From: a virus
Strand: one strand, 5' to 3'
DNA length: 64,000 nucleotides
Virus record (IMG/VR): IMGVR_UViG_3300028844_004205
Span: 2,366 to 66,365 of that record
Positions 1 through 58,689 of this stretch are shown here, piece by piece. Positions within the stretch are counted from its first letter, which is position 1; the number at the start of each line of letters is the position of its first letter. The translations under genes and the position numbers were made by a program. The notes below the pieces were generated by a model. The model searched no databases. It worked only from the letters and a program-made list of their open reading frames with translations, and was not told where the DNA came from.

Positions 1-105
1 CGGTGTATCATCCTTAACCCATATCTGCCCATCACCGGGGACATCTACCCCTGCACTTGACTGTTCCGTTAAAAAAACTCTGCCATCACCCGCTAATTTA
101 GTCAT
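1..105 (-). CDS. Partial tail-fibre/adhesin-like protein (N-terminus only, runs off the window edge)
   Basis: ATG at 105 overlaps the TAA of the 105..680 gene. Reads MTKLAGDGRVFLTEQSSAGVDVPGDGQIWVKDDTP with no stop. Confidence 0.6.
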   Translation of the reverse strand, partial: MTKLAGDGRVFLTEQSSAGVDVPGDGQIWVKDDTP

Positions 106-5534: not shown

Positions 5535-5543
5535 TAGTAGTTA

Positions 5544-18500: not shown

Positions 18501-19097
18501 GGCACCAAACTTACTTAATACATTTACTACAGGCAGGCCTTCTAAAACACCAGCCGTTGTACCACCAGCAATAGATATACCTGCTAGTTCTCTAAGAGAT
18601 CTACCTTTTTCGTCTGCTTCTACTGCCTCTGGAAATATAGAACCTGTCTCAACGCCTGCACCTGCGCCTACGATGCCAGCAGTGGCCGCTTGCTTAGCTG
18701 TAACAGCACCCGCGAGTCCGAGTCCAGTTCTGGCGGCAAGGGCGGTAGGGGCTCCTAGTGCTAGAGCCCCGAACAAGGGGGCGTTAGTACCTAAAGTATT
18801 AACTACGAAGTCTGTTAAGTCTTCAAAGGTTTCTACTTGGCTAACAGTGGTAACTCGGTTCTGGGACCTAGATAACACTTCTTGCGAATCGTGTATTAAC
18901 CCTAGTTTTTTTCGGGCGTAATCATCTTGCCCTAGCACAGCAGCGCCTGCAGCCGCGGCTCCGCGGGCTGCATTGGTAACATTCTTTGCGCCGGTGTTAA
19001 GAGCATTACTAAGCTGCCCAGAGGCACGTAATCTTAAAGGTGCTTGTGAACTAGTATTAGGTAACTCTGTAGGCGGTAACGGGTTAAACCGCGCCAT
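12522..19097 (-). CDS. Giant internal virion / DNA-ejection protein with zincin-like motif
   Basis: 2191 aa with Gly/Ala-rich N-terminal hydrophobic segments, coiled coils and GHEVGH...QEWFAD. Typical podovirus position. Confidence 0.7.
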   Translation of the reverse strand: MARFNPLPPTELPNTSSQAPLRLRASGQLSNALNTGAKNVTNAARGAAAAGAAVLGQDDYARKKLGLIHDSQEVLSRSQNRVTTVSQVETFEDLTDFVVNTLGTNAPLFGALALGAPTALAARTGLGLAGAVTAKQAATAGIVGAGAGVETGSIFPEAVEADEKGRSLRELAGISIAGGTTAGVLEGLPVVNVLSKFGAGKAGSNFIKRALKDATEQGLLEAGTETAQTIIERATIKFVNENREIFTEEGIDEILTAAAGGAIFGGGIGGGASIANSALNFNSDPLADAMDDIEGEDELAITRASEQLKLMQDIPEAANIDPQDLDDPDVRELVHDLGVKHARGLGGIDTTAAFLRKRSDEAGGTTLTSSNINVIMDIAAGKVEPTEEVIDELRETFGQRDKVIKEADKRGLKDARRESFIRETEIDNVQDLLEEVNEDRIIQEEEAFNNLEYRETISQEDANARLQDSVASKFSADIRERFIFKNDRERIDGKGNQIKTGAIKLSTVKDRIAKLESQNKNAVYEPSTMADALKDRGLSRRVIKGIAKREAKDLIAKNPNNTKIQGLVKPFQGTKEPTFAQSMAVLENLHVIKVVSNPLEGIDPADVSLSEAEILGNEGDFGNFEEAIAVNPNGKRERGGNEFQVRVINTAEARVIGVGKPRNPNRVYNIKPSRLIRRMLNKLQVNKKTASDVDIAVAFLEGIVSLNQNGLKLRETDFNNIMGPKEIVFHRDGRPNMTFEEMQKIIATLPETFVRSQDEAIPKAIAALIRTRDAKSKYAGKGEISERFTYTNALSDFVKVDETTNPRIRDLFDEVSQLEENPDIEGSIDFLIDDFINNAEGSQELGSNQDSDTSDKGDAAAQLNFTTAGSLESKDLMKQVRQKQPLSDQGGTTGPANRESPMIKELEKRLEGLYNTLIDSPKSVKLPLSKKIQATKAELAKLRALNIETRNLNEKERAKKVRARNEQIRLKTEELGELEKELAHAIKTETVRYAVTEKEYQVRAKLIAEISEVIEALNKAKYGDTFQSAAIGLNSGESFELSVEEAEVTRRVNRSETFMVNKLSEKLGLEGLSVAALDEVINHPKAISAFVQGTRAFIENGKIYIDPRIQSKTLRQDLIGHEVGHALLSKEMKAMVDSTDTTLFEAMHESYLQWREAQLRNNDSVLVTFASKKTLEQTVNLMTDPLAQERIQNLSKSELAYLLDFQEWFADHMSRWTRENPVVKEPTDIVAKFFKGLKDILAEALKVAKSTLGFSPDVTVAAYIDDVISRNKKATLNADLTDKANSMPEELDQKLAAAAKIVTEKPFSEEAKEALRDVFMNELSPEHKKTMARFLGSRFTFKRLHNLLAEDKEAQFEITVDPYAAMAYAYQFHLAGTDITTGKSFLNTGPSTRTVFDYISEILEEVFGYVQDHHQAEKIFAAIASRQISKNYVVENRVRDTITKRAVQNIVDFTSQKMHPLMDTFGRTADARMRATNNPFFIQLANKFNIRSSNSAGVSETYFTARTRKIGFFTNKWASLVTGLDEFEKADLHEVLLDVNKFNALPKGDIVAQRARAAKNLFTEMSAYSKNKGVEVGFLKDYFPWVYDGKELAERSDEFKNLLLQDKFKAEIEAINLANAKVKLAKANKDLPKDEKLFLEDIGVDTPEEFVESIIDTLVNKDGYADVEINPDRNEFTPFMGSINKRVLSFVTDIGNAADQEMLTSFFSKDIDNVVHSYIRQVVKRSEFTERFGSEGLVIQDLLEAAEEFGATKEELTMAHHYVDAMIGKLGYSNNQRLMKFFSKIRNKRDDEGNLIYIEVAPGEVVNPTLQKIFSAAVVTQNFAVLSLATFTSLVDPIGIAVRGGSMDVAMTALKAGAKEITNAVQQLAGGDKKLYRSEMLKIAESLGVIEGHVLNEALEWEYGATWLTPGIKRANEFFFKSIGLTQLTKLTRVMAVSGGMQFLKRHGKMNNPLSVRYMEDLNLQEGDVITDATGGVKLLTSSERSDMARKKPEGYEEILAADERVKAAISRFVDTSILRPNAAQRPIWASDPHFILVFHLKSFMYAFHDNILRRAFSEALGHNNYGPVMFLALFAPMMMISDLFRDLFREAVGNPSGNPARSLGDRAMNSVQRSGLLGLGQIFADAGQDIRMGGAGIESFLGPTYQNGVTEFAEALTEGGNEWVDLMEKNEPYGNSTQPFSAVADFMAEE

Positions 19098-28618: not shown

Positions 28619-29731
28619 TTAAATAGCTGTGTCTAGTACCATAACGCCAAAATCCTCGTCAGTACCATTGATTGCGCTTCGGAAAACAGGTTTCTTCAAA
28701 CCACACATTTTGCCTACAGAAATAGCTTGTTGGTTTTCATAGTCAAAGCCTTTTTCCACCCAGTACGGATCGCCAATATCTGCAAAACCCATGGCCTGAG
28801 CGCCTGCGAAAATGATTCGTTGACCTTCAACGTCATTACTACCACCCCATTTATCAACACCAGAAGTAAGACCTTTGGTGTTATAAACATGACGGTACTC
28901 GTGAAGCATTAAGCCATCTACCATAATACCGGTAGTTTGACCCTTGAAGATAGGATTATCTTTAGAGCGAGGCATTGCGTGGCGCCAAGCTTGTAGGAAA
29001 TCCGAATCCTGTTTTAGTTGAGCAAAGCCTTGAGGAGTCATGAAAACATGATACAGCTCTAGACCTTCTTCGCCTCGAATAGGGCGTAAGAACTGGTCTT
29101 TAGCGTAAGCTTTCATTTCTACTAGCATAGCCCATGATGGTACATCCAACGCATCTACAGCGGCTGTATTACCAGCTTCGAGACCCGTGGTTACATCCCA
29201 TCGTCGATGGCGATTTGCTGTTGGAGCAGTTACATCAGCAGCGTACTCCAAGAAAGGCAAGTCAGAGCCTACGCGAGCCGCACCATTGGTTTGGTTTGCA
29301 TAAGAAACACCTGACAGAGTTAGAAAAGCTAATTGATCTAAACGATCAGAAAGCCAGTATGATAGTACATCTTTGGAGTTATCACGAAACGTGACAACAG
29401 ATTTTTGGTCAGCCATACGACCTTCGTGGCGGTTAGCATGACGAATCTGATCGATCTGGATCACTTGGTCATAACTCTTGAGAGCTTCTTCATTACCCTC
29501 TAAAGTACGATCACCTGCGATACCATCACCTTCAAGATCGGCGACTAACGTTAATACAGCACGAGCTCCTTTGTGATCTTTCTTAAGTTCACTGATTCGT
29601 TGAATCATAGAAGTGTTGCTATCACCTGTGAAGTTGTTCATGAACATGTTGTTCCGAGCTGCCTTCCAGATGTCGCGCTGCCACATCGTCAGTTGTTCTG
29701 ACGTTAAGTTGGCAAAATTAGTTAATGACAT
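28619..29731 (-). CDS. Major capsid protein (N4-gp56/DUF4043-like)
   Basis: IQRISELKKDHKGARAVLTLVADLEGDG..GDRTLEGNEEAL, GAQAMGFA, EDFGV. Strong RBS. Confidence 0.9.
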   Translation of the reverse strand: MSLTNFANLTSEQLTMWQRDIWKAARNNMFMNNFTGDSNTSMIQRISELKKDHKGARAVLTLVADLEGDGIAGDRTLEGNEEALKSYDQVIQIDQIRHANRHEGRMADQKSVVTFRDNSKDVLSYWLSDRLDQLAFLTLSGVSYANQTNGAARVGSDLPFLEYAADVTAPTANRHRRWDVTTGLEAGNTAAVDALDVPSWAMLVEMKAYAKDQFLRPIRGEEGLELYHVFMTPQGFAQLKQDSDFLQAWRHAMPRSKDNPIFKGQTTGIMVDGLMLHEYRHVYNTKGLTSGVDKWGGSNDVEGQRIIFAGAQAMGFADIGDPYWVEKGFDYENQQAISVGKMCGLKKPVFRSAINGTDEDFGVMVLDTAI

Positions 29732-31780: not shown

Positions 31781-32812
31781 CTATTTAAATCTCTTTTTTC
31801 TAAGGGCTAAGCCCCTTTTAAGTAGGGGCATCGCGTTTAGAATAGAAGAGCTTTCATCCTCTCCTGATATAGCGTTACCTACATTTCCTGCTTGCCCAAA
31901 GGTTATATCATTACCTAAGTTCCGTAAACCTGATGTAATCCCCTGAATAAATTTATTTGGTCCTACCCCATTATCAAAGAACTGCTTTGGGTTATCCACT
32001 GCATCTTTTACAGAAAGCCCTGTGCTAACAGCCCCTGCAACAGGGCCACCTTTTGTCGCCAGCGACCGCAGCAGTTTTTTTCTAGCCACCATTTTTTCAA
32101 AAGTCTTTAAGTCTTTAGCTCTTTGCTCAGGGGACTTAGCTCTGAATTTTTTATCCATTTCTATTCTTTGCTGCTTTGATAAATGAGATCCTTTATTCGC
32201 ATTCTCAAGTATCTTTTGCTCCTTCCTGTCGCTAGCTGTAGTTGCACTAGCGAGGGGTTTTCTCTGGTCCTTGTCAAACAGTTGTTGCGTTATAAGGTGG
32301 TCGCCTAGCTCTTTCCCGAAAACCTTTCTCATTTTGCTTCTGCGTTCTAAGTTCTTGTTAAGAGCTTTCGCTATGCTTTTATTTTTTGTGTCCTCCACTC
32401 TTCTCGCATTACTCTCCATTTTATCCACGGTGTCGTTATCTAGTATAGATCTAAGTACTTCATTACTCCGTGAAGGAGGGGGTCTTTTGGCACCCCTTAT
32501 TTGCTCAGGTTTTTGGTTTTCTGGTTTAAACTTATCATTAATCTCCGGAAATTTCTCACGTAGCGCGGTCCTTCTAGGAGGGCTTAAATTACTTTTCCTA
32601 ACCTGCTTATTCGCTTCTGTGGGTATATTAGTGGTTGGTAAGTCTGCTCTTTTATTTATCCGGGCGTTACGTTCTAGCTTCCTTTTTTCCGCCGCAGTTA
32701 AACCCCCTCGGTCTGCGAGGGCTCTCCGGTCTTGACTCTGCCTTTCCATTACCGATAGTTCCCTATCAGTAAAGGGGCTTTCACCGGGTTTTGTTTTATT
32801 ACCCTTACCCAC
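31781..32812 (-). CDS. Highly basic hypothetical protein, possible internal virion protein
   Basis: 343 aa, Lys/Arg-rich, start overlaps the portal stop. Confidence 0.6.
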   Translation of the reverse strand: MGKGNKTKPGESPFTDRELSVMERQSQDRRALADRGGLTAAEKRKLERNARINKRADLPTTNIPTEANKQVRKSNLSPPRRTALREKFPEINDKFKPENQKPEQIRGAKRPPPSRSNEVLRSILDNDTVDKMESNARRVEDTKNKSIAKALNKNLERRSKMRKVFGKELGDHLITQQLFDKDQRKPLASATTASDRKEQKILENANKGSHLSKQQRIEMDKKFRAKSPEQRAKDLKTFEKMVARKKLLRSLATKGGPVAGAVSTGLSVKDAVDNPKQFFDNGVGPNKFIQGITSGLRNLGNDITFGQAGNVGNAISGEDESSSILNAMPLLKRGLALRKKRFK

Positions 32813-35000
32813 TCTTCTTCTCCAATTTAGCTGCTGGCGCTGGTTTTTGTTCGGCTTCTTTCTTAGCTATCTTAAGAGTCTCAGCAGCTTTTTCCGCTTC
32901 TATTCGCATCTTAGCTCGTTCGACTAATGCTTTGTTTCTAACCTCTTCCTTCTTAATCTGGAAGTCAGCTATCATCTTCTCTCTGGCCAGTTGTATCTCA
33001 GCTTCTACCTGTTGCCGCTTCAACTCCATCTCTGCTTGTGTTTTCTCTTGTTCTAAGAGGAATCTACCGGTCTCAAGTTCCAATTCTTCTTGCCCACCTT
33101 GTTGATCGGGTGTAGCTTCAGTCTGCGCTTTGGCCATTTTATGGGCCGCGTCTGCTTTCTTGACTAGTAGATCTGCGGATGCGTTCTCAGCTTCTAACTG
33201 TTTAAGCTGCATCTCTAACTGAGCTAACTGCTGTTCGGTCTCTGTAGCTTCTCCGCCTCCATTAAGATCCCGCACTCTCTGAGCTATCTCGCTCTTGCGT
33301 GGCAGTCTGCTAGCCTCGATGATAATATCATCTGGTATGGCTATGCCTAACTCGCGCATTCGTAGGGCTTCGTCGAATACCTGATCTTCATAGGTGTCTT
33401 TAGCTGGTACGTCAATTACGACTACCTCATATTCACCTAATGTTAAATCGTTAAACACTTGCCCTTGGTCACCTGCCTGATTAACTGTAACATCCTCTGC
33501 GTTAGAAAGTAACCCATTACCTGTAATCTTGAAGGATCTTTCTTCTGTATAATACGCCTGTACAATGTCTAGCACTCTCGTTGCTAGCATGTGTCTTGTG
33601 CGTACTAGGTTCTCCATCGGTACTGCCAAGTTAATAGATCCAGCCCTCTGTTTGGCCTGAATAGCCTTGGCAGCTACGTCTGCGCGGTCAAATCCGCGTT
33701 TGGAGTCTGATACACCTGAGATCTCTTTGATAGCTTCATCTGATAAATATACCATCCGGTCAAGGCCTGTTGGCACTTGGTTGGGAGCTATCTTCTCGAT
33801 ATCATTGATATCGTTCATCTCAAGTACAAGTCCTGTTTCCGCGCCTCTAGTTTCTAGTTCGTCTGGATCCATATTAAGTAATGACCCGCGTTTCACCTTG
33901 TAACCAGAGTTTGCTGTGGTGTTTATAACATGTAGCATTTGAGAGCTAGTCTTGTTAAGTTGATCTTGCGGAGACAGGATATGCTCGATTAGTCCCATAG
34001 TCTGCCCTTCATGGAAGAAGGGGAAGTATGGAACAATGGTAAAGTGTTTCAAAGGACTTGTGCTTTCAAATAATACAAAGTCATCCACTGTTACCATGAA
34101 TTTTATACTTTCTGCTCGTTTCTTAATAATAGCTAGACCAAGATTCTCTACCGCATATTTAATCTTATCTTTAGCCCAGTCTTTAGGTACCACCCGTGTA
34201 TCACCGGTACGGGTATCTACGAAGTGTTCTCTTAGCTCCACTTCTCTATATTGACGTTTAACAACCCGTGCGAGTTTACGTACGTTTTTATCGGACCTAT
34301 AAGCAGCATCTACTATAGGACCAAGGTTGTATGACTTACCAAACGAATTCATCTGGTGGTCTAAGCTGTCGTACCCCATCTGGAACTGCGACTGTTTACG
34401 GTTCTTAATCTCCGTGGCCACGTCCTTACGGTTGTACATTGTTTCTATTTGGTTAGGTGTTAGCCATTTAGTTACAAACACCTCATTCCACTTATCAGTA
34501 TCATACTCGTCGGCATCAGGATCTGGAATCACGTTCATAGGTGACTCGTAATTGATCCGCGCTTCGCCCTGCATATGATCATCAAACGCTACATCAACGT
34601 CGAAGTATCCGCGTGATGTTATAATACCTGCGTTGAATACATCTTCCTCAAGCCACTTGAGCTTGTTGTTGTTAGCTATGTTAATCCATAACTTTGTTAG
34701 CGCTTCAGCAGTATCTGGGTTACCAGTAGCTGTTGGATGGAACGATACATCTGCTGCTGAGTTAATCTGCTCCCCTGCTACTGTAGCGATGGTAGAGAAG
34801 ACTTTGTTGATAGTAAGTGCTGGTCGACGCTGCCTCTCTAACTTAGCTATTACATCGCTGTCCCACTGCTCGCCGTAAAAGTACTTTTGGCACTTCTCGG
34901 CTTTCCTAATAAATTCTCGATGTCCTGAGTCACGCGCATATGCATACTTCTCGAAATTCTCTTTTGCTTTCTGTTCTTCAGTTGACATTACTGTCCCCAC
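32805..35000 (-). CDS. Portal protein (P22-like, long C-terminal coiled coil)
   Basis: YFYGEQW...RRPALTINK, PDPDA, FTIVPYFP, PQDQLNK. Follows TerL. Start may be the ATG at 34988. Confidence 0.9.
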   Translation of the reverse strand: MGTVMSTEEQKAKENFEKYAYARDSGHREFIRKAEKCQKYFYGEQWDSDVIAKLERQRRPALTINKVFSTIATVAGEQINSAADVSFHPTATGNPDTAEALTKLWINIANNNKLKWLEEDVFNAGIITSRGYFDVDVAFDDHMQGEARINYESPMNVIPDPDADEYDTDKWNEVFVTKWLTPNQIETMYNRKDVATEIKNRKQSQFQMGYDSLDHQMNSFGKSYNLGPIVDAAYRSDKNVRKLARVVKRQYREVELREHFVDTRTGDTRVVPKDWAKDKIKYAVENLGLAIIKKRAESIKFMVTVDDFVLFESTSPLKHFTIVPYFPFFHEGQTMGLIEHILSPQDQLNKTSSQMLHVINTTANSGYKVKRGSLLNMDPDELETRGAETGLVLEMNDINDIEKIAPNQVPTGLDRMVYLSDEAIKEISGVSDSKRGFDRADVAAKAIQAKQRAGSINLAVPMENLVRTRHMLATRVLDIVQAYYTEERSFKITGNGLLSNAEDVTVNQAGDQGQVFNDLTLGEYEVVVIDVPAKDTYEDQVFDEALRMRELGIAIPDDIIIEASRLPRKSEIAQRVRDLNGGGEATETEQQLAQLEMQLKQLEAENASADLLVKKADAAHKMAKAQTEATPDQQGGQEELELETGRFLLEQEKTQAEMELKRQQVEAEIQLAREKMIADFQIKKEEVRNKALVERAKMRIEAEKAAETLKIAKKEAEQKPAPAAKLEKKSG

Positions 35001-35123: not shown

Positions 35124-37097
35124 TTATGCTCCCATGAACCCAGAGCCGTCTTTACCTTTGCCCTGATTTCTTACATATTTGTTTAGTTTTTCTTTCCATG
35201 ATTTAGGCTGTGACTTCTTAGGTCTAGTGGGTGCATGTGCGTGTAGTACCATGCGTGCTAGCCATGCGAGTGCGTCGACTATATCGTCGTTGACCCCGCC
35301 CGGGAACCTAAGTAGCTCGTGTTGTATAGTCTCTACCCAAGGGTTTAGCTCAGGAGAAGGAAATAGTACCATGCCTTGTGTCATACGTCCTTGTAAGGGT
35401 CTCGCTCTCATAGGTTTATCTGTTATTGGTTTAAGTTCCGGGTCAAATGTTAAGTACTGTCTTCGTTCCGCCATTCGTTTATTCATTTGTGGTGCAATAG
35501 CTTTATCCAAAGTACCCACCTCTATACCTACAACACACCCACCTGCCTTATCAGAGAATCTCTTCTCCATGTCCAATATAGCTTCTACTATCTCAAATGT
35601 ATCCATGCGTGCACGGACCATATCTATAACATGAAGCCTATCTTCATAATCTAATACTCCGGCTACACCTACGGTATAGTCGTTCGATTCCTTCTGTCCA
35701 ATAGCTAAATCCCATGCCATATAAACTGGTAACCCTCTCCAATCGACTGTGTTAGGTACATACCTAAACATATCTTTCTTAAAGTACATACCTTCATCAG
35801 GTACAGGGTTCTGCTGGTATAATGCAGACCAATGTCGCGGCTGTAAAGTTCGTTTTATCCTCATCAACCTGCCACGCGGGAAACGCGCAGCATGAAGCGC
35901 ATCTCCTTCTTCTCGTAGTAGGACGCTTTTAGTGGACTTCGGTTCCTCAGTTACTGTCCAATCTTCGTTCTTATATTCTTCACCAGTTGCAATGGCTGGG
36001 TAGCTTATAACTTCCCACTGATCTATCTCCTCTTTAAACTGATCTACATTACGGTTAATCACTCGTTCCGCGACCATTAGCTCAGCATCGCTCATACCCG
36101 GTTTTATCAGGTCTTGGCGCAGAGAGTTCTCTAACTCCCCGGCCTCTTTAAGTAAGCCCTCCATCTGGGCTATGCAACGCCCGGACAGATCATCATCATG
36201 CCAGCGAGTCTGAATTACTAGGACCCCGGACAGCGGAGCAAGGCGCGTATACGCAGTCGACCCGTACCAATCCCAGTTGCTCTCGCGTGTGGTTTCTGAG
36301 TCCGCTTCCTCCGCATCTTTGACAGGGTCGTCAATTATGAGAATATTTGCACCTTTGCCCGTGACCCCCGATCCGACGCCCGCCGGAACATACATACCGC
36401 CTTCGGTAGTCTGCCACCCCTCTATGTTCTGTGCTTCAGGGTTCAATTTACAATCGGGAAATATCTTCTGATATGCTGGATCTCGTAACTGCCCTCTAAT
36501 AGCTCGTGAGAAGCCCATAGGGAGAGATACCGCATAAGAGGCAGCTATGATCTCTAACTGTGGATAAAGGCCAAGGGCCCACGCAGGGAACTTCTTAGAG
36601 GCCAATTCAGACTTCCCATGCCGTGGAGGCATGAATAACATCAATCTAGGGTCTTCACCATTAAGAACTGCTTGTAAAAAGCGCTCTAGTCGTGCACATA
36701 TGTCCTCATGTATCCAACCTGCTACATAATTTGGTTGAAACCGTTGTACAAAGCGTAGTAATTTCTTGCGTGACAGGATACGTCGCGCATATTCTCGTTC
36801 GAATGCGTCGGTAGACGCGTTTTTAATATCTAAATCTGCTTTTTTCTTAGTTTTCTTAGCCGAAGCGTACTTCTCTTCAGTTTCACGGAGACTTTTCTCC
36901 ATTTCGGCGGTCTGCTTCTTTAATTTCCTGTCCCTGCATTGTGCTTTGAAGTCCAACATCTCCTCTTCGTGAGCGCAGACGAGACAAACATCAGCATATA
37001 CTACAGGATTCCGGCTCAGTTGAGAAAAGTACGCCTTTTTCTTGGATTTCCCGCACGGACCGGTGCAAACTTTCAAGGTGTTCTTATTATTCTCCAA
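35124..37097 (-). CDS. terL: Terminase large subunit
   Basis: Walker A MPPRHGKS, Walker B ILIIDDPVK, QTRWHDDDL, LYQQNP, nuclease WDLA...NDDIVDA. Confidence 0.95.
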   Translation of the reverse strand: MENNKNTLKVCTGPCGKSKKKAYFSQLSRNPVVYADVCLVCAHEEEMLDFKAQCRDRKLKKQTAEMEKSLRETEEKYASAKKTKKKADLDIKNASTDAFEREYARRILSRKKLLRFVQRFQPNYVAGWIHEDICARLERFLQAVLNGEDPRLMLFMPPRHGKSELASKKFPAWALGLYPQLEIIAASYAVSLPMGFSRAIRGQLRDPAYQKIFPDCKLNPEAQNIEGWQTTEGGMYVPAGVGSGVTGKGANILIIDDPVKDAEEADSETTRESNWDWYGSTAYTRLAPLSGVLVIQTRWHDDDLSGRCIAQMEGLLKEAGELENSLRQDLIKPGMSDAELMVAERVINRNVDQFKEEIDQWEVISYPAIATGEEYKNEDWTVTEEPKSTKSVLLREEGDALHAARFPRGRLMRIKRTLQPRHWSALYQQNPVPDEGMYFKKDMFRYVPNTVDWRGLPVYMAWDLAIGQKESNDYTVGVAGVLDYEDRLHVIDMVRARMDTFEIVEAILDMEKRFSDKAGGCVVGIEVGTLDKAIAPQMNKRMAERRQYLTFDPELKPITDKPMRARPLQGRMTQGMVLFPSPELNPWVETIQHELLRFPGGVNDDIVDALAWLARMVLHAHAPTRPKKSQPKSWKEKLNKYVRNQGKGKDGSGFMGA

Positions 37098-50160: not shown

Positions 50161-51555
50161 GTGACCCTTTCAAGGACCGAAAGACCCCTATTCGAACACC
50201 AAAAAATAACCGTAAACGCAAGCCAAAAGACTGATAGACTATTCGATATGAGCGACCCCGGAACGGGGAAAACAAGAGCTCATTTAGAAGCTTGGTCTAT
50301 TCGTAGAAAAGAAGGAGGTAAATGCCTCTTAGTTATTGCGCCTAAATCTTTATTAGAACCCGCATGGGGCAATGATATAGAAGAGTTTACTCCAGACTTC
50401 ACTTACTCTGTAGCGTATGCTAATAACAGAGAGAAAGCGTTTGCAGCAGAAGCTGATATTTATATTACTAACACCGATGCAGTTAAATGGTTAGCTCTTA
50501 AAAAACCAGCCTTCTTTGAAAAATTTGATTCTATAGTAATAGATGAGAGTACAGCTTTTAAGCACAGAACATCTGGTAGATCTAAAGCACTTAATAAAAT
50601 AAAGAAATATTTTAAATATAGAGCTGCTTTAACCGGTACACCCAATTCTAATTCAATCACAGAAATATGGAATCAAGTATTCTTTCTAGATGATGGAAAA
50701 CGATTAAGCACTAAATTCTTTGCTTTCCGTAATCAAGTGTGCACACCTACACAAGTCGGTGCTCAAGCTCACATGATTAAATGGACAGATAGACCCGGAT
50801 CATTAGAAGCAGTAACAGGTTTAATAAAAGATATTTCAGTAAGACATAACATAGATGAATGTATGGACTTACCAGAAAATATTGATAGGTACATTAAATT
50901 TAATCTTAATCCAGCTCACTTAGTGAAATACATAAAGATGGAGAAGGATGCATTCTTGAAGTTAGAAGACGGAAATGTAGATGCAGTTAATGCAGCAGTA
51001 CTTAGAAATAAATTACTCCAAATAGCTTCTGGTGCGGTATACACAGAAGGTGGAGAATATACTTTACTAGATTCCAAACGATATGAATTAGTAACTGACT
51101 TAGCCCAAGAAAGAGAAAACACTGTAGTATTTTTCTTGTGGAGACACCAAAAAGAACAACTTATAAAAGAAGCAGATAAACGTGGTATAAGTTTCGAAGT
51201 AATCGATGGAACTGTACCAGTAAGAAGACGTAAACTAATAGTTGACGCTTTTCAAGCTGGTTTCTTTAAAGAACTTTTAATACATCCTAAAACAGGGGCT
51301 CATGGCTTAACTTTAACAAAAGGCAGAGCTACTATCTGGCCATCCCCTATATACGAACCTGAATTATTCAAACAAGGTAAACATAGAATAGTTAGAAGTG
51401 GTCAAGAAAAGAAAACAGAAAACCTTATGGTACTGGCTACTGGTACTGTAGAAAAGAATGTATACGAAACATTTTCTGGGAAAAACACAAAGATGGTCAA
51501 TTTCCTAGATTTAATAAATTACTGTCAAAATGAAAGGAGTGACGATAATGAGTGA
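50161..51555 (+). CDS. SNF2-family helicase
   Basis: DPGTGKT, APKS, VIDES, LTGTP, KLLQIASG, GAHGLTL, RIVRSGQ. Confidence 0.9.
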   Translation: MTLSRTERPLFEHQKITVNASQKTDRLFDMSDPGTGKTRAHLEAWSIRRKEGGKCLLVIAPKSLLEPAWGNDIEEFTPDFTYSVAYANNREKAFAAEADIYITNTDAVKWLALKKPAFFEKFDSIVIDESTAFKHRTSGRSKALNKIKKYFKYRAALTGTPNSNSITEIWNQVFFLDDGKRLSTKFFAFRNQVCTPTQVGAQAHMIKWTDRPGSLEAVTGLIKDISVRHNIDECMDLPENIDRYIKFNLNPAHLVKYIKMEKDAFLKLEDGNVDAVNAAVLRNKLLQIASGAVYTEGGEYTLLDSKRYELVTDLAQERENTVVFFLWRHQKEQLIKEADKRGISFEVIDGTVPVRRRKLIVDAFQAGFFKELLIHPKTGAHGLTLTKGRATIWPSPIYEPELFKQGKHRIVRSGQEKKTENLMVLATGTVEKNVYETFSGKNTKMVNFLDLINYCQNERSDDNE

Positions 51556-52909
51556 AACACAATATTTAACTATTGATAATAGTATACTAAATATACCAGA
51601 TGCAACTTTCGCGGAAGTACTAAATGATGCATCCGCAGATGAAGCATTTAAATATGATGCAACAAACGACAAAATATTAGTAAAACATTCTTGGGCTATG
51701 AATTATTTCAAATCCATGGAATGTGATGAAGATTTTAAATTAGTTAATGTTAAAGTAAACAAGACTTTATTTATGCCTTCTTCTCGAATAAACATACAAA
51801 GCTTATTCGAATCTATTTTTATTGGTAGAGAATATAATTTACATATAGGTATAGAGGAGTCTATAAATCCTATTAATGCTAATAGGTTAAAAAAAGACGA
51901 TGCTACTTTAAATATAATAATTCCTAGCGCCTTGGAAGCAAGTAATTCAAGTCAGCAATTTATGATAAAGAATTCTACTTTCTTTGTCCTAAAAGAAACT
52001 GACGCCCTTAACACTATAGGCGTCTCATACAACCCTGAAGATATGTTCAAGGAATTAATAGCTTACGCTGAGGAATCAGGTGAAGTTCGACACGATGATA
52101 AAAGTATTGCTTATTTTATATATCCTAATACATTAGTATTAAATCATTACTTCAATACTGGTGTAACACGATGTAATGATATATTTAGAGATATGTATAA
52201 AGATATATTCAACTGGACTAATCTATGTATGGCGCAACCCAAAGAATCTTTTGAGGAAGCTAGAGAAACTAAAGAACGAGAGCAAGCTGTAAAATGTATA
52301 ACCAAATACCTAGAATCAGAAATAGCTAGTAAGGGTAGCGAAATATCAGATACTGAACGTACTATTGAACAAAATAGAATTAATCTATCTTCTAATATAA
52401 GAAAATTGGAAGATCTTAAATTCTTTATCAAAGATTATTCAGAAGATATGGATACTTTAATAACACGCACTATTGATAGTGTAATGACTTTAAAAAGTAA
52501 TGCTAAAATTAGAGATGTAAAACTTAACTCTACAGGTTTTTGTGTTTACACTGACCCTTTACTTATGACTGTTCCAGCTAATCATTCGGACCAAGTAGAA
52601 GGTGATCAGCGAACCGCGACCAGAGTTGGTGGACCATACATAATAAACTTCACTTTTAATCAATCACGAATTATTATTCTTGCAGCTAATCCTGACACAG
52701 ATAACAGACAAGGTGCTTGGGGCGGTCAATGCCACCCTCATGTAAGTAATCATGGAGAAGCCTGTTGGGGAAATGCATCTGAAACAATAGCAGAAATGCA
52801 TGGTAAACGAGAGTTTGCTATGCTCACAGAATTCGTAATGGCTTACTTAGAAACATGTAATCCTGCGGACAGTGCTGGGGCACACTTCCATAAATGGCCC
52901 ATTTTTTAA
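51530..52909 (+). CDS. Coiled-coil protein with C-terminal E2 (UBC-fold) ubiquitin-conjugating-like domain
   Basis: HPHVSNHGEACWGN matches HP[NH]-x7-C spacing. Directly upstream of Ubl, JAB and E1. Likely start 51548 (AAGGAG RBS). Confidence 0.75.
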   Translation: MKGVTIMSETQYLTIDNSILNIPDATFAEVLNDASADEAFKYDATNDKILVKHSWAMNYFKSMECDEDFKLVNVKVNKTLFMPSSRINIQSLFESIFIGREYNLHIGIEESINPINANRLKKDDATLNIIIPSALEASNSSQQFMIKNSTFFVLKETDALNTIGVSYNPEDMFKELIAYAEESGEVRHDDKSIAYFIYPNTLVLNHYFNTGVTRCNDIFRDMYKDIFNWTNLCMAQPKESFEEARETKEREQAVKCITKYLESEIASKGSEISDTERTIEQNRINLSSNIRKLEDLKFFIKDYSEDMDTLITRTIDSVMTLKSNAKIRDVKLNSTGFCVYTDPLLMTVPANHSDQVEGDQRTATRVGGPYIINFTFNQSRIIILAANPDTDNRQGAWGGQCHPHVSNHGEACWGNASETIAEMHGKREFAMLTEFVMAYLETCNPADSAGAHFHKWPIF

Positions 52910-52939
52910 ATAATTAACCCTTCAAAAGGAGGACATAAT

Positions 52940-53152
52940 ATGTCTATTACAGTTAAAGTTGGTGTTGTACCCGGTTCTATTAACGAATTCGGTTTAAACG
53001 ATGGCGCTAAAGTTTCAGACGCGCTATCTGCAGCTCGTTTATCAGGTGCTGGTTATGCTATCACCGTAAATGGTGAAAAGGCTACAGCCGATACTTCATT
53101 AAGTAACTGCGACCGCATTCTGTTGACTAAATCAATTAAAGGCAACAGCTAA
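52940..53152 (+). CDS. Ubiquitin-like (beta-grasp, ThiS/MoaD-like) protein
   Basis: 70 aa: ITVKV...GAKVSDALSAA...ITVNG.....LSNCDRILL...KGNS. AGGAGG RBS. Confidence 0.85.
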   Translation: MSITVKVGVVPGSINEFGLNDGAKVSDALSAARLSGAGYAITVNGEKATADTSLSNCDRILLTKSIKGNS

Positions 53153-53173
53153 GCCAAAACAATGGCAAAATCT

Positions 53174-53205
53174 AAAGGGGCCGCTAAATAGTAGCCCCTT
53201 TTTTT
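53174..53205 (+). terminator. Intrinsic terminator between Ubl and JAB
   Basis: AAAGGGGCCGCT-AAAT-AGTAGCCCC followed by TTTTTTT, imperfect stem. Confidence 0.7.
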
Positions 53206-53218
53206 CCGGAGAAAATTT

Positions 53219-54025
53219 ATGAAAATTAAGAAACTAGGACCGGATCCATGTGTATGGCTAACGGTAGAAGCAAAAGCAAAAATTGATTACCTAGTAAAAC
53301 TAGCTTCTAAAGAAGTAGGCTGGCTGGGTAAAGTACAAGAATATACTGACATGCAATATGTTATAGAAGACATATTCTTAGTCAAACAAGAAGTAACAAG
53401 CGCAGAAACAGAACTAGATGATGAAGCACTTGGAACATTTTTCAATGAACATTTTGACGATATTGAGAAATTCCATTACTGGGGGCATAGCCATGTTAAC
53501 ATGCCGGTTAATCCTTCTGGGCAAGATGTAAAACAGATTACGGAATTCATCGTCGATAAACAAACAAAAACCATAAAAAATGAATACTTTATTATGGGTA
53601 TTCATAACAAAAGCGGACAAGTACGCTGGGATATTTATACCCCTACTATTATTTATGAAGAAGTAGAAAGTAAATTATACTATGGTGAAATGGGTTTTGA
53701 AGAAGAACTTAAAGCTCAATTTAAAGAATTAGTTTCGGAGAGAACTTATGCAACAAACACATACAACACATGGCCCAATGGCCGTAACAACAGATCCCCT
53801 CAATATCCAGCGACATCAAGAAGTGTTCACGGAAAGGATGATGCGGGGAAAAACAATCGATCTGATAGGTTGCGGGGCGACAGGGTCAAAGATAGCATTG
53901 AGTATGATGAAGCTTGGGATTCAGAAGTTGCGTATCTGGGACGGCGACATAATCGAGGAGCACAACATCCCAAATCAGGCGTTCTTGACACCGATGATTG
54001 GACAGAAGAAGGCTGGTTCAATTAA
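53219..54025 (+). CDS. JAB/MPN+ (JAMM) metallopeptidase
   Basis: EVGWLG...HSHVNMPVNPSGQD, i.e. E-xn-HxH-x7-S-x2-D. Confidence 0.9.
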   Translation: MKIKKLGPDPCVWLTVEAKAKIDYLVKLASKEVGWLGKVQEYTDMQYVIEDIFLVKQEVTSAETELDDEALGTFFNEHFDDIEKFHYWGHSHVNMPVNPSGQDVKQITEFIVDKQTKTIKNEYFIMGIHNKSGQVRWDIYTPTIIYEEVESKLYYGEMGFEEELKAQFKELVSERTYATNTYNTWPNGRNNRSPQYPATSRSVHGKDDAGKNNRSDRLRGDRVKDSIEYDEAWDSEVAYLGRRHNRGAQHPKSGVLDTDDWTEEGWFN

Positions 54026-54461
54026 AGAAATGGCTCCATGGGCCACAGATGTAGAAATACGTAACGAGCATTATACCGGACAAGAGCCTTTAGGTAATAT
54101 AGTATTCTTACTAGTAGATAGTATGGAAGTAAGAAAAGAAATTTTCGAACGAGATATCAAACTGAAACCTAACGTAGAACTCATGATAGAAACTAGAGCG
54201 GGTACTAATATAGGTATGGTATATACTATTAACCCTAGAAAGCATAGCGATATAAAACTCTGGGAAGACAAGTGGTACCCGGACAGCGAAGCAGAAGTAT
54301 CCGCTTGCGGAGCAGTATTAAGTGTAGGCCCTACGGGTGACATAATATCTGGATATGCTGTATGGGCAATGATGGCATACTTCAGAGGTAAAGAGAATAT
54401 AGCAAACAGAGAATTAATCTTCTGTACTGAAGGTGATACTCTCATAATGAATAAGCATTAA
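53748..54461 (+). CDS. ThiF/MoeB-family E1-like adenylyltransferase
   Basis: IGCGATGS, WDGDIIEEHNIPNQ, GQKK, LVDSMEVR, ETRAG, candidate catalytic Cys in SACG. GGAG 7 nt before the ATG. Confidence 0.92.
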   Translation: MQQTHTTHGPMAVTTDPLNIQRHQEVFTERMMRGKTIDLIGCGATGSKIALSMMKLGIQKLRIWDGDIIEEHNIPNQAFLTPMIGQKKAGSIKEMAPWATDVEIRNEHYTGQEPLGNIVFLLVDSMEVRKEIFERDIKLKPNVELMIETRAGTNIGMVYTINPRKHSDIKLWEDKWYPDSEAEVSACGAVLSVGPTGDIISGYAVWAMMAYFRGKENIANRELIFCTEGDTLIMNKH

Positions 54462-54476
54462 TAAAGGAGGCTATGG

Positions 54477-55043
54477 ATGGCCGAGCAATATAATTTACAA
54501 ACACTCATAGGTATTACTGGACCCGCAACCGCTGGCAAAGATACAGCAGCAGCATGTCTAGTTCATAACTTTGGGTTCAAACGTTACGCACTAGCAGATA
54601 ATCTTAAAGCAGCAGCTTGCTATATTTTTGGTGTAACAGACTTTGATATACAAAATAGAAAAGAAACTAAAGTGCCTTTCTGGGATAAATCCCCTAGGGA
54701 ATTACTTCAGCTTATGGGCACACAAGCTATGCGAGAAACATTTGGTCCTGATATATGGGTTAAATCTTTAACGAAAAATATCATAGATACTCATCCCCAG
54801 AAAGTAGTAGTAACAGACATCCGCTTTGATAACGAAGCAGAATGGATCAAAAAAACTGGGGGAGTAATATGGAAAATAGAACGTGATGCAGCTGCTAAAG
54901 TAGCCGCGCATGTTTCTGAAGATGGTATAGATGATAAATTGGTAGATGTTGTGTTCAATAATAACGATACTATCGAAGCTTTATACGAACAACTAATACG
55001 TGAGTATATGGCTAATTTAATAGAAAACCTAGCAAATAAATGA
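54477..55043 (+). CDS. Deoxynucleoside monophosphate kinase
   Basis: GITGPATAGKDTAA, ALADNLK, SPRELLQLMGT, VTDIRFDNEA, HVSE. Confidence 0.92.
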   Translation: MAEQYNLQTLIGITGPATAGKDTAAACLVHNFGFKRYALADNLKAAACYIFGVTDFDIQNRKETKVPFWDKSPRELLQLMGTQAMRETFGPDIWVKSLTKNIIDTHPQKVVVTDIRFDNEAEWIKKTGGVIWKIERDAAAKVAAHVSEDGIDDKLVDVVFNNNDTIEALYEQLIREYMANLIENLANK

Positions 55044-55154
55044 GTACCGCGAGGTATATATACCTCGTCTTCATAAGCACAGGCTTGGTATTAAAGACAA
55101 TAGTATTAGCTAGAGAGATAGTTAAACATTACAAAGAACATAAAAAGGAACAAG

Positions 55155-56975
55155 ATGAAGCTACCGAAAAAGATAGCGATACTTGATTTTGAGACTTACT
55201 TCGATAAGGACTACTCCTTAAAGAAGATGTCTACAACCAATTATATAAGAGATACTCGGTTCAAGGCGCAAGGCGTCGGAATTAGGATGAGCGATGAGAA
55301 ATGTGCTAAATGGTATTCCTCCGTAAATATTAAACAAGCGCTGGGTGACATCGATTGGTCCGAAACCGGCGTTTTGTGCCATCATTCTCACTTTGATGGC
55401 GGGATACTGAGTTACCATTTTGATATTGTTCCATGTTTCTATTTCTGTACACTTAGTATGGCTAGACCTTTACATGGCGGAACCATACGAAATGACCTAG
55501 ATAGTTTATCTCACCACTATGGAGGGGCAGGTAAAAAACCTGATATACTAGGTAAAACAAAAGGGATAAGAGATTTACCCCCCGAATTAGATAAAGAATT
55601 AGGCGAGTATTGTGAGCAAGATGTGGATGAAACCTTCCGCATATTCAAATGTATGGTTTCTAAGTATCCTAAAGAAGAGCTATTCTTAATAGATATCACT
55701 GTTAGAGCTTATGCAGACCCTGTATTTGATACAAACAAAGTAGAACTACAGCGAATACATGATGAAGAAATACAGCGCAAGAATGACCTCTTAGAGCGTC
55801 TAGGCATAGAAGATCGCACAGAGCTCAGAAGTAATGACAAACTAGCAGATAAATTCAGGTTACTTGGCATAGAACCACCTAAGAAAATAAGTCCTACAAC
55901 AGGCAAAACTACTTACGCTTTTGCTAAGACAGACATAGGATTCCAAAAACTAGCATTTGATGCTAATCAAGATGTAGTAGATCTACAAGAAGCGCGGCTC
56001 GCGGTCAAATCAGACCAAGTCGAGAGCAGAGCTCAACGGATGATAGAACACAGTGCCACCGGTCCGTTGCCTATATACTTAGCATATGGCAAAGCTCATA
56101 CTTTGAGATGGGCAGGTGGAGACAAAATGAACCCTCAGAACTTAGGCCGGGATACAGGCTTAAGGGAATGTATGGTAGCACCAGAGGGATTTGAATTAGT
56201 AATTGGTGACTCCGCTCAGATTGAAGCTCGTATGAATGCGTGGCTCGCGGGCGAAGAAGCACTAATCGAGGCCTTCAGAAATGGATATGATATATATTCA
56301 GAGTTCGCTGGAGATCAAATATATAACAGAAAGATTACTAAGAAAGAAAACCCAATAGAGAGATTTGTAGGTAAAACCTCTATACTAGGATTAGGCTTTA
56401 ATATGGGTGTTCCTAAATTTAAGAACACTCTTGAGGCTGGTACGATGGGCCCACCCGTGAAACTTGAGGAGGAGCTCTACGCGAAAGCAGTTTATGGATA
56501 CCGGAACAAGTATACAAAAATTGTGGATCAGTGGGGGACTTTTCAGAGTATGTTAGCAAAGATGTACAACTCTGATTGTCACGAGGAGTATGGGCCCATC
56601 ACTTTTTTACACGAAAGAGTTCTATTACCTAATGGTATGGAGTTAATGTATCCAAACATAGATGGGGAGTGGAATGAATATAGACAAAAAGTAGATAACT
56701 ATACTTACTCCGGAAAGAAAATATACGGCGGCTTGTTTGTAGAGAATGTAGTACAATCACTCGCTAGGTTAGTAGTTGCTTACCAAGCTTTAATGTTGGC
56801 CGATAAATATCGCATAGTGTTGTTAGTGCATGATGAAATAGTACTAATGGTGCCGACAGACCAAGTAGAACAAGCTTTAATAGATATAGAAACAGCACTT
56901 AAAACACCTTTAGATTGGTGTCCTGACTTACCTTTAGATGCTGAAGTTTGTAGAAGTAAGTATTACAAAAAATAA
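55155..56975 (+). CDS. polA: Family A DNA polymerase with 3'-5' exonuclease
   Basis: ExoI LDFET, YCEQDV, NPQNL, motif A DSAQIEAR, motif B RFVGKTSILGLGF, motif C VHDE. Confidence 0.93.
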   Translation: MKLPKKIAILDFETYFDKDYSLKKMSTTNYIRDTRFKAQGVGIRMSDEKCAKWYSSVNIKQALGDIDWSETGVLCHHSHFDGGILSYHFDIVPCFYFCTLSMARPLHGGTIRNDLDSLSHHYGGAGKKPDILGKTKGIRDLPPELDKELGEYCEQDVDETFRIFKCMVSKYPKEELFLIDITVRAYADPVFDTNKVELQRIHDEEIQRKNDLLERLGIEDRTELRSNDKLADKFRLLGIEPPKKISPTTGKTTYAFAKTDIGFQKLAFDANQDVVDLQEARLAVKSDQVESRAQRMIEHSATGPLPIYLAYGKAHTLRWAGGDKMNPQNLGRDTGLRECMVAPEGFELVIGDSAQIEARMNAWLAGEEALIEAFRNGYDIYSEFAGDQIYNRKITKKENPIERFVGKTSILGLGFNMGVPKFKNTLEAGTMGPPVKLEEELYAKAVYGYRNKYTKIVDQWGTFQSMLAKMYNSDCHEEYGPITFLHERVLLPNGMELMYPNIDGEWNEYRQKVDNYTYSGKKIYGGLFVENVVQSLARLVVAYQALMLADKYRIVLLVHDEIVLMVPTDQVEQALIDIETALKTPLDWCPDLPLDAEVCRSKYYKK

Positions 56976-57548: not shown

Positions 57549-57926
57549 ATGACTACAGGGACTAAAGTAGATGAATTAGAAGCTTTACGAGAACGTATCC
57601 GAGCAAAGGAGAGTGATCTTAAAGAGCTTAAAGAGATGAAGGCTTCAATGGAAATGGAGCTTTTGGACATCATGGAAACGCAGGGCATGACAAAATTGTC
57701 AGGCTCTAAAGGAACTATATCCATTTCAGAAACGGTCGTACCGACTGTAGATGATTGGGACGCCTTTTACAAATTCCTTCACAGGAGTAAAGCATATCAC
57801 ATGATGGAGCGTAGAGTTTCCTCTACCGCATACCGCGAGGAGTTGGAAACTAGACGTGGTCAGCAAATACCGGGCGTGAGTTCTTACACGAAACGGAAGC
57901 TGAATCTTAGATCAATTAATAGTTGA
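57549..57926 (+). CDS. Conserved phage replication-module hypothetical protein
   Basis: N-terminal coiled coil, PTVDDWDAFY, ERRVS, IPGV. Confidence 0.7.
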   Translation: MTTGTKVDELEALRERIRAKESDLKELKEMKASMEMELLDIMETQGMTKLSGSKGTISISETVVPTVDDWDAFYKFLHRSKAYHMMERRVSSTAYREELETRRGQQIPGVSSYTKRKLNLRSINS

Positions 57927-57954
57927 TCCGTTAACCTAGAAAGGAGATCCGTAA

Positions 57955-58689
57955 ATGGTTAAACAAGTAGATAGCAAGGATGTTGCTAACATTTCAAAAG
58001 GTATTGCCGATATCCCAGATTATATGAAATCTGATGGTGGTATGGGTAATGAAAACCTTACTAGTGATGACCTCACTATCCCACGCTTGTCATTACTTCA
58101 AGCGTTAAGTCAAGAACTAAAGAAAACTAATAGCAAATACATCGAGGACGCTGAAGCCGGACAAATAGCTAATTCTATTTCGAAAGAAGCAGTAGATGAA
58201 ATACAGCTTATTAATGTTTTCTATAGAAAAGACTTCCCTATTTTTACTAAACGTAAATTTGGTGGTGGTTTCAACGCAGTATTCTCAACTAAAGCAGAAG
58301 CTTGGGAATGGGTAAATGAGCAGCCTTCAACCGACCAAGAAAAGTATGAGGTCGTAGAAACAGCTAATCATTTTGTATTAATAGTAGAAGATGGAAGAAT
58401 AGTAAGTCAAGCTATAATGGCTATGGCTAGCACTAAGCTTAAATTTTCTCGGGAGTGGAATAGCAAACTAGCTCAACAAGGTGATACTATTCCGCGCTTC
58501 GCTACAATATGGACAGTCTCTGGTAACTTAGAGGCAAACAAAAAGGGTGATGAGTATTACAACTATACTATCAAACAGAACCCGGAGTTCGCTAGCGAAG
58601 AAACATATGCAGAAGCTAGAAAGGCCTATGAAACGGTCTCTATAATGTCTGCAGAGCAAACAGCTCGAAGTGATAAACAAGCTGCATAA
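57955..58689 (+). CDS. Putative ssDNA-binding / recombination protein
   Basis: GNENLTSDDLTIPRLSLLQALS, KFSREWN, NKKGDEYY. Strong RBS. Confidence 0.55.
   Translation: MVKQVDSKDVANISKGIADIPDYMKSDGGMGNENLTSDDLTIPRLSLLQALSQELKKTNSKYIEDAEAGQIANSISKEAVDEIQLINVFYRKDFPIFTKRKFGGGFNAVFSTKAEAWEWVNEQPSTDQEKYEVVETANHFVLIVEDGRIVSQAIMAMASTKLKFSREWNSKLAQQGDTIPRFATIWTVSGNLEANKKGDEYYNYTIKQNPEFASEETYAEARKAYETVSIMSAEQTARSDKQAA

Follow-up and report, generated by a model that had tools for sequence, protein, structure and literature searches.

Operons that combine a ubiquitin-activating enzyme (E1), a ubiquitin-conjugating enzyme (E2), a JAB peptidase and a ubiquitin-like protein (Ubl) are already known as a general kind in prokaryotes; Iyer et al. 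(2006) divided them into types 6a–6e, with an E2 that lacks the canonical His in type 6d (PMC1779556). The characterised bacterial systems, type II CBASS and Bil, together with Bub as judged from its genomic context, are host weapons against phages, and a complete kit borne by a virus reverses this picture. Here we describe such a kit in a 64,000-nucleotide stretch of DNA (hereafter the window), which corresponds to bases 2366–66365 of the 66,365-bp IMG/VR virus record IMGVR_UViG_3300028844_004205 (CheckV completeness 100%). Four genes lie at window positions 51530–54461 on the same (plus) strand in the order E2-Ubl-JAB-E1, and from their sequences and structural models we consider it likely that this cassette is a working ubiquitin-like protein conjugation module in an apparently lytic marine phage. 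The sequence and fold features of the general kind are present, namely an E1 adenylation domain with its Cys, a UBC-fold E2, a JAB motif and a beta-grasp Ubl with a C-terminal Gly. An earlier, sequence-only reading of this DNA had described four consecutive plus-strand genes with named motifs, and our list of open reading frames (ORFs) and motif script found each of them in the place it had given:

51530–52909, plus strand: E2-like protein, 459 aa from 51530 or 453 aa from 51548
52733–52765, plus strand: E2 active-site motif HPH-x7-C (HPHVSNHGEAC, residues 402–412, with H402, P403, H404 and C412), located by script
52940–53152, plus strand: 70-aa Ubl precursor, a beta-grasp protein by model and Foldseek, its Gly68 capped by Asn-Ser
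53138–53149, plus strand: C-terminal end of the Ubl, KGNS, located by script
53174–53205, plus strand: terminator-like GC-rich hairpin with a run of seven U, between the Ubl and JAB genes
53219–54025, plus strand: JAB/JAMM metallopeptidase of 268 aa, with the domain at residues ~1–165 followed by a low-complexity tail (PADLOC JAB, 3.3e-8)
53486–53527, plus strand: JAB motif KEVGWLG, then HSHVNMPVNPSGQD (H-x-H-x7-S-x2-D), located by script
53748–54461, plus strand: single-domain E1, a ThiF-type adenylating enzyme of 237 aa (Pfam ThiF, 7e-13)
53748–54025, plus strand: out-of-frame overlap of 278 nt between the JAB tail and the E1 N-terminus, across the E1 nucleotide-binding motifs
53868–53885, plus strand: E1 motif GCGATG (GxGxxG), located by script
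53964–53978, plus strand: E1 motif NIPNQ, located by script (a DS motif is also present)
54300–54311, plus strand: E1 motif SACG, located by script, with the candidate catalytic Cys187 at 54306–54308

When a degenerate-pattern scan built on an E1 alignment was run over IMG/VR contigs and one genome per species (185,579 species), the E1 family was found in 462 viral contigs and 273 species genomes. An alignment was required for this, as single-sequence scans of the viral contigs with the E2-like protein or the E1 found no relatives. Locus counts reported here are for the best 80 of the 462 viral contigs (5.7 to 395 kb) and the best 80 of the 273 genomes, 160 loci in all, whose ORFs were queried with a hidden Markov model (HMM) of the E2-like C-terminus and with the JAB and Ubl sequences of the window (later with a Ubl family HMM). 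In the viral loci, an E2-like gene lay next to the E1 in 75 of 80, a JAB in 78 of 80 and a Ubl in 60 of 80, with nearly all on one strand; in the genome loci, the E1 was accompanied by an E2-like gene in 72 of 80, a JAB in 75 of 80 and a Ubl in 66 of 80. Gene order varied, the viral arrangements including Ubl-E1-JAB-E2 (21 loci), Ubl-E2-JAB-E1 (11), E2-JAB-E1-Ubl (8) and E2-E2-JAB-E1-Ubl (6). The search of viral contigs for the four genes together, which the sequence-only reading had called for, bore out their co-occurrence; the order E2-Ubl-JAB-E1 recurs among the 160 loci only in a bacterial metagenome-assembled genome (MAG), at locus L093. A linkage that outlasts rearrangement of this kind speaks for a functional unit. 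Among the conserved neighbours of the clustered loci, no fifth gene belonging to the cassette came to light.

The E2-like gene was originally given the extent 51530–52909. Its end and identity stand, while its start is more likely to be 51548, which is preceded by a GGAG-type ribosome site; the database copy of the protein (P0001) has 453 aa. The protein is laid out as an orphan N-terminal region (residues 1 to ~235), a long helix (238–305) and a UBC-like domain (304–459), and has no Pfam, PHROG, PADLOC or NCBIfam match. A word-based search returned its own cluster only. Exhaustive HMMER searching recovered 537 cluster representatives at E ≤ 1e-3, all sharing the C-terminal ~200–270 residues (~190–458), and in that search the N-terminal ~185 residues had no relative beyond their own cluster. 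Similarly, residues 1–235 gave no usable match in the ESM Atlas; residues 300–459 matched unnamed, mostly viral clusters there and, in one row (template modelling (TM) score 0.50) that we treat as a lead only, a CBASS E2 cluster. In an alignment of 116 E2-like proteins, P403, C412 and G414 never vary, and at least 90% of the sequences retain H404. Among 197 distinct E2-like ORFs, HP[HN]-x6-9-C occurs in 73 and the looser P[HNQ]-x6-9-C in 85; the H-P-(H/N)-x7-C spacing is the same as in canonical E2s. Relatives range from ~130 to 1320 aa with diverse N-termini, and many loci carry 2–4 paralogues.

The UBC fold claimed for the C-terminal domain was upheld at moderate strength. In the AlphaFold model, the predicted local distance difference test (pLDDT) exceeds 90 over residues 250–459, save for one ten-residue block near 355 (74), and the modelled order of elements (helix, beta-meander, HPH loop, Cys, three helices) fits a UBC core. 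UBC enzymes lead the Foldseek matches of this C-terminus in the PDB, with UBE2S the best (E 0.15, probability 0.72). VIA-align, an independent structural search against all representatives, placed UBE2S, UbcH10, Ube2K, UBE2D2 and Ubc13 at the top, at Z 7.0–7.9 with 108–122 residues aligned to model residues 304–459 and a root-mean-square deviation (rmsd) of 3.1–3.9; its best match was UBE2S (1zdn_A; Z 7.9, 120 residues, rmsd 3.7). The sole non-UBC rows of the structural search were single long helices that align with the coiled coil, leaving UBC E2s as the only globular matches, with sequence identity to the UBC chains of 7–18%, near background. Because Z stays below 8, we base the assignment on fold, motif and context combined. 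Pfam scans, first of 40 and later of 68 E2-like proteins, found no UBC or Prok-E2 family, with scattered zinc-finger matches and one weak Prok-RING_1 match, and a profile of 40 of these proteins run against PDB sequences gave coiled-coil noise only. In most relatives the UBC domain is followed by a C-terminal motif resembling a zinc ribbon, CxxC...CxxC, and a few of them match zf-FCS or TRASH models; the window protein ends before this motif.

The beta-grasp assignment of the Ubl was confirmed by structural modelling. Sequence searches give sub-threshold matches, to SAMP2 (0.0023, under the curated cutoff) and to an NCBIfam model (0.0018), and a model built on 39 relatives reached a pLDDT of 89.6. 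Foldseek gave 13 PDB matches at E ≤ 1e-3, the matches listed being nearly all Ubls or sulfur carriers: Mth1743 (2.5e-4), SUMO2/3, MoaD, SAMP1, the Caldiarchaeum ubiquitin and NEDD8, at probability 1.0 and TM ~0.6–0.76. G68 and N69 are conserved in at least 90% of the 39 aligned relatives. We then surveyed 127 distinct Ubl proteins holding 161 Ubl domains. Just 3 of the 127 stop at the conserved Gly itself; 55 extend one residue beyond it and 26 two, and some carry tails that range from 10 to more than 100 residues. Directly behind the Gly stands Asn at 108 of the 161 domain ends and Ala at 11. In addition, 25 of the 127 genes are polyubiquitin-like, with 2–3 head-to-tail repeats; examples with two or three repeats are L002:6737-7405, L028:1875-2507 (three repeats), L004:6710-7141 and L047:6663-7088. 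Repeats in these tandem genes end in KGN (KGA in L047), with a linker residue or two after the inner repeats; in L002 and L028 every repeat ends in IKGN, followed by one linker residue. Neither a capped Gly nor a tandem repeat can yield a reactive C-terminus unless a peptidase cuts it, which explains why a JAB is almost always present.

The other two enzymes agree with their original assignments as JAB and E1, given the PADLOC and Pfam matches listed above. The H-x-H-x7-S-x2-D motif is present in 144 of 148 distinct JAB family members; homology fades past residue ~180, and the tail is unconserved. E1 relatives are mostly 215–260 aa in a set of 5.8 billion proteins. Across 25 aligned E1s, G41, G43, G46, D65, D67, E70, H72, N73, N76, Q77, K88, D124, R129, R150, S185 and C187 are invariant, and among 152 distinct E1s GxGxxG is found in 151 and S-x-C in 140. 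A profile search of PDB sequences aligns the C187 stretch over the Cys-bearing stretch of E. coli ThiF, the Cys concerned being Cys184. The same profile ranks PaaA, ThiF, MccB and Uba5 (4e-12 to 2e-10) above BubCD (8e-8) and Cap2 (4e-7), all of them weak matches.

A GGAG-type site serves the E1 start at 53748, and conservation of the E1 N-terminus sets in by about residue 17; the overlap with the JAB tail, on which the sequence-only reading is silent, is therefore at least ~230 nt long. The overlap occurs without indels in contigs of three other metagenome runs and one RNA library. Only 4 of 161 E1 homologues have no stop in the corresponding alternate frame (median of five stops over the first 92 codons). 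We considered a JAB-E1 frameshift fusion and rejected it, since the E1 frame opens at 53733, only 15 nt before the ATG. Between the Ubl and JAB genes, a 69-nt stretch with the hairpin folds at -21.3 kcal/mol (z = -3.29), a value equalled in 2 of 200 shuffles; a simple terminator scan did not list it. This hairpin may be a leaky terminator that raises the Ubl transcript over the enzyme transcript.

DNA at least 99% identical to window positions 51000–55200, with no indels, was found in three marine metagenome runs of other studies, and 20 marine or estuary runs (11 studies) held at least part of the cassette's sampled words, two of these runs, from one study, being possibly the source sample itself. 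In two runs, 51023 and 53269 seemed to be joined, a reading we rejected because it rests on two 18-nt low-complexity matches. The SNF2, Ubl, JAB and E1 genes are each covered in part by contigs of one metatranscriptome library; that other parts of the cassette are uncovered is not evidence of silence.

By homology with described cascades, the JAB would trim Asn-Ser off the 70-aa Ubl and expose Gly68, which the single-domain E1, probably a ThiF/MoeB-like homodimer, would adenylate before forming a thioester on Cys187. The Ubl would then pass to Cys412 in the UBC-like domain of the 453-aa protein. Targets would be chosen by the variable N-terminal region and coiled coil of the E2-like protein, with no separate E3, and the Ubl would be joined to a target lysine; the JAB could also reverse the mark. 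Target selection by the E2 itself, with no E3, has been proposed for Bil (PMC11601596), and the diverse N-termini and many paralogues of the E2-like proteins form a pattern that fits it. Since the cassette lies within the replication module, it probably acts early to mid infection. Our best guess is that it modifies host proteins, or else replication or assembly proteins of the phage itself, in the phage's favour; the roles put forward in the sequence-only reading, namely tagging host proteins, tagging phage proteins or jamming Ubl-based host immunity, are likewise guesses. As the proteins are small and separate, rebuilding the cascade in vitro should be easy.

The surroundings of the cassette are viral. 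As the sequence-only reading had it, the cassette sits between a SNF2 helicase gene and those of a deoxynucleoside monophosphate (dNMP) kinase and PolA, and the minus-strand half of the window carries terminase, portal and head genes:

50161–51555, plus strand: SNF2 helicase, upstream of the cassette (Pfam SNF2-rel_dom, 8.8e-19)
54477–55043, plus strand: dNMP kinase, downstream of the cassette (Pfam DNMK, 4.6e-22)
55155–56975, plus strand: PolA, downstream of the cassette
35124–37097, minus strand: large terminase (PHROGs)
32805–35000, minus strand: portal (PHROGs)
28619–29731, minus strand: major head protein (PHROGs)

By Pfam and PHROGs, the plus-strand half holds a primase, a PD-(D/E)XK nuclease, the SNF2 helicase, the dNMP kinase and PolA. 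In the clustered loci, with the window included, replication-gene neighbours recur, namely the PolA family in 26 and the primase family in 22. Of the window ORFs scanned, 44 were searched with Pfam and 19 large, mostly structural ones with PHROGs only; no integrase or repressor family was found among them, and the phage appears from its gene content to be lytic. By terminase, the closest cultured relatives are the Pseudomonas phages KPP25 and phiR18 (41–42% identity). The two viral contigs with the closest PolA (41% and 35% identity) lack the cassette within the DNA fetched for them, and searches of 50,697 phage records with 50161–56975 (blastn) and with the E2-like protein (tblastn) gave zero matches. 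Elsewhere in the window, the C-terminal 800 residues of a 2191-aa ORF (12522–19097, minus strand) match a PHROG family of the type 'virion structural protein' (1.3e-72). A 191-aa ORF (105–680, minus strand) may encode a receptor-binding protein: it has a short match to Mtd_N, the N-terminal domain of the major tropism determinant (2.1e-6, 28 bits, cutoff 26.3). Two adjoining genes at 57549–58689 match the Pam3 gp33-like (8.6e-8) and gp34-like (2.2e-57) families of a Pseudanabaena phage.

We found that the machinery is not confined to phages. That the window itself is a viral contig is clear from CheckV and the terminase, portal and head genes, but the original notion of a phage-owned kit has to be widened to chromosomes of Melainabacteria/Obscuribacterales and Patescibacteria. 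The best 80 genomes are mostly MAGs of Melainabacteria/Obscuribacterales, Saccharibacteria and other Patescibacteria, with several contigs of 0.7 to 7 Mb. Flanks were scanned at seven genome loci and contain housekeeping genes (CTP synthase, D-Ala-D-Ala ligase, endonuclease V, malic enzyme and PilM); no phage or obvious defence genes were found in those flanks. A FastTree phylogeny of 161 E1s mixes viral and genomic rows, with 18 label changes by parsimony, at least nine forced by well-supported branches, and ~53 when labels are shuffled; this mixing suggests repeated exchange of the cassette family between phages and bacteria, bearing in mind that some MAG contigs are possibly mis-binned phages and some IMG/VR contigs possibly prophages. 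A gene for a ~800-aa ClpB/ClpC-like AAA+ ATPase lies directly 3' of the E1 in 27 of the 80 genome loci (for example L114:8796-11240 and L118:8763-11102, in Melainabacteria/Obscuribacterales MAGs); every one of the 27 is of the Melainabacteria type, and the arrangement hints at a tag-and-unfold pathway.

Among cultured phages, a distant E1 (27–28% identity) was found in six records only, labelled, where annotated, a 'thiamine biosynthesis protein'. One of them, the jumbo Xanthomonas phage PhiXhv-15 (L082:1733-2158 and 4929-5612), has a 141-aa protein ending in SGG three genes upstream of its distant E1. None of the E1 neighbours there matches the E2, JAB or Ubl profiles of the family, and the locus may be a different variant.

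Several observations weigh against a conjugation module in a lytic phage. The UBC match is moderate (Foldseek E 0.15, VIA-align Z 7.9), and Z below 8 can reflect a common arrangement of elements. The E1 has no known E2-docking domain, and the PDB matches of its profile are led by PaaA, ThiF and MccB rather than by conjugating E1s. Asn after the Gly is conserved beyond the apparent need of a throw-away cap. The contigs of the RNA library are no proof of transcription, as DNA carry-over is possible, and the lytic call has the lack of an integrase or repressor among the scanned ORFs as its sole basis.

The leading matches of the E1 profile bear on two other readings of the chemistry. In one, the cassette is an auxiliary metabolic module in which the E1 makes a thiocarboxylate on a ThiS/MoaD-like carrier and the JAB acts like Mec+, so that no protein is tagged. 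The Pfam ThiF match, the alignment of C187 with the ThiF Cys and the weak SAMP2-like match of the Ubl (0.0023, below the curated cutoff) are all in keeping with this, and viral thiF, moeB and mec are listed as sulfur-relay auxiliary genes in the literature on marine viromes (PMC10134843). NCBIfam ThiF models also match at 2e-12, but with at most 47 bits against cutoffs of at least 152, and all ThiF and MoeB scores fall far below cutoff. Moreover, an E2-like gene with an invariant Cys stands beside the E1 in 147 of 160 loci, the Gly is capped with no free Gly-Gly, and tandem-repeat Ubl genes exist. ThiG, MoaE, rhodanese and cysteine desulfurase are all missing from the 44 ORFs of the window scanned with Pfam. 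The sequence-only reading had already argued from an E2 present and sulfur partners lacking nearby, a statement that holds for those 44 ORFs, the 19 large ones having been seen by PHROGs only, and its argument is strengthened by the co-occurrence in 160 loci, the invariant E2 Cys and the capped or tandem Ubl Gly. We therefore favour protein conjugation over sulfur transfer, which seems very improbable. The second reading takes up the conserved Asn. MccB requires a C-terminal Asn, and a similar chemistry through a succinimide intermediate would make Asn69, not Gly68, the reactive residue. This would explain why Asn follows Gly at 108 of 161 domain ends and why 55 of 127 proteins end one residue past the Gly, and PaaA and MccB are among the best PDB matches of the E1 profile. 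Those matches, however, take in the Rossmann part only, beginning at chain residue ~107–116; with only ~40 residues ahead of GxGxxG, the E1 has no counterpart of the N-terminal peptide-clamp domain of MccB and PaaA. Eleven domain ends read Gly-Ala and some have other residues, and many Ubl proteins continue past the Asn. In type II Bil, a single capping residue after the Gly is removed (PMC10557695), and we give the Asn chemistry scarcely any credence.

A third alternative keeps the conjugation chemistry and changes its purpose: the cassette would be a Bil-like defence carried by the phage, tagging a structural protein of competing phages for superinfection exclusion and not directed at the host. 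Here the Bil gene order in 11 of 80 viral loci, the presence of the family in bacterial chromosomes and the at least nine forced label changes in the mixed E1 tree speak in its favour, and the placement among replication genes, the lack of an integrase or repressor among the scanned ORFs, the housekeeping rather than defence neighbours of seven bacterial loci and an E1 architecture unlike that of BilD speak against it. On balance we think it unlikely. Beyond the window, and more tentatively than for the phage module itself, we entertain the possibility of an undescribed prokaryotic ubiquitination family that moves between phages and bacteria. It would consist of a single-domain, Cys-bearing E1, one to four coiled-coil, target-selecting E2s whose HPH-x7-C site is eukaryote-like, a JAB and Gly-Asn-capped, often repeated Ubls; phages would use it as a weapon of attack, to tag host or rival proteins, and Melainabacteria would have wired it to a ClpB/ClpC-type unfoldase, parallel to ubiquitin and Cdc48/proteasome.

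The cassette family is apparently so far undescribed and uncurated. We found no description of a phage-encoded E1-E2-JAB-Ubl cassette or of its family in the full-text literature, a search that did not cover the published Bil paper or the work of Burroughs et al. from 2008, 2009 and 2011, any of which may list the family. A term search of a survey of 224 jumbo phages (PMC7824862) found JAB, ThiF, E1-like, E2-like and Ubl terms all absent, and MoeB/ThiF genes are reported as common in archaeal viruses and loosely tied to ubiquitination in another paper (PMC8276007). If the phage does tag host proteins, the cassette would represent a new type of tool for phage takeover or counter-defence, and a bacterial-virus parallel to the exploitation of ubiquitin by eukaryotic viruses. 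The family also bears on the origins of ubiquitin, through a ThiF-sized E1 paired with a canonical-looking E2 active site, polyubiquitin-like Ubl genes and the Clp-type AAA+ ATPase that follows the operon in Melainabacteria.

Similar to type II CBASS, the cassette combines E1 and E2 chemistry with a JAB. Cap2, however, is an E1-E2 fusion that conjugates the cGAS-like enzyme with no beta-grasp Ubl, whereas the cassette has a separate E1 and E2 and a stand-alone Ubl. CBASS-type JAB and Cap2-type 'E1-E2' models were the sole PADLOC defence matches, in a library whose coverage of Bil is uncertain, and the Cap2-type matches cover only E1 residues ~7–113. No nucleotidyltransferase was found among the window neighbours scanned with Pfam (44 ORFs).

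In its small single-domain E1, its Cys at the ThiF position and its small beta-grasp carrier, the cassette resembles the ThiF/ThiS, MoeB/MoaD and SAMP/UbaA systems. Carriers of the ThiS, MoaD and SAMP type end in a free Gly-Gly. These sulfur-carrier systems work without an E2, whereas the E1 of the cassette family is as a rule paired with an E2-like protein and the Gly of its Ubl bears a cap. Eukaryotic ubiquitin genes consist of head-to-tail repeats to be cut apart, with a cap after the last Gly, and eukaryotic E2s have an HPN-like motif seven residues before the Cys. The Ubl repeats, the capped Gly and the HPH site seven residues before the Cys in the cassette family are all reminiscent of this, but the cassette has no multi-domain E1 and no E3, nor a proteasome link in the phage.

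With Bub, or type 6E, the cassette shares the combination of E1, E2, JAB and Ubl, Ubls with one to three beta-grasp repeats and a tight coupling of JAB and E1. Bub, however, has Ubl-E2 and JAB-E1 fusions, no catalytic Cys in E1 or E2 (its chemistry being oxyester) and a DUF6527 serine protease (PMC11601596). In the cassette, E1 and E2 are separate and both Cys are invariant, and DUF6527 had no match in the 44 window ORFs scanned with Pfam.

The likeness to Bil is in four separate genes for Ubl, E2, JAB and E1, a capped Ubl glycine and the absence of an E3 gene from either; in type II Bil, the JAB enzyme BilC cuts between Gly97 and a single capping Ala98 (PMC10557695). The Bil gene order Ubl-E2-DUB-E1, where DUB is the deubiquitinating enzyme (PMC10557695), differs from that of the window and is the one seen in 11 of the 80 viral loci. 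The E1 of Bil, BilD, is built of three parts (IAD-AAD-CYS; PMC11601596) and the cassette E1 of a single domain of 237 aa, while the cassette E2 has a canonical-looking HPH-x7-C and a long coiled coil, and its carrier is a phage rather than a defence island. The link to Bil and CBASS that the sequence-only reading drew therefore concerns architecture and mechanism and does not extend to family membership: by the features tested, the cassette works like Bil, yet is not a member of Bil, Bub or CBASS.

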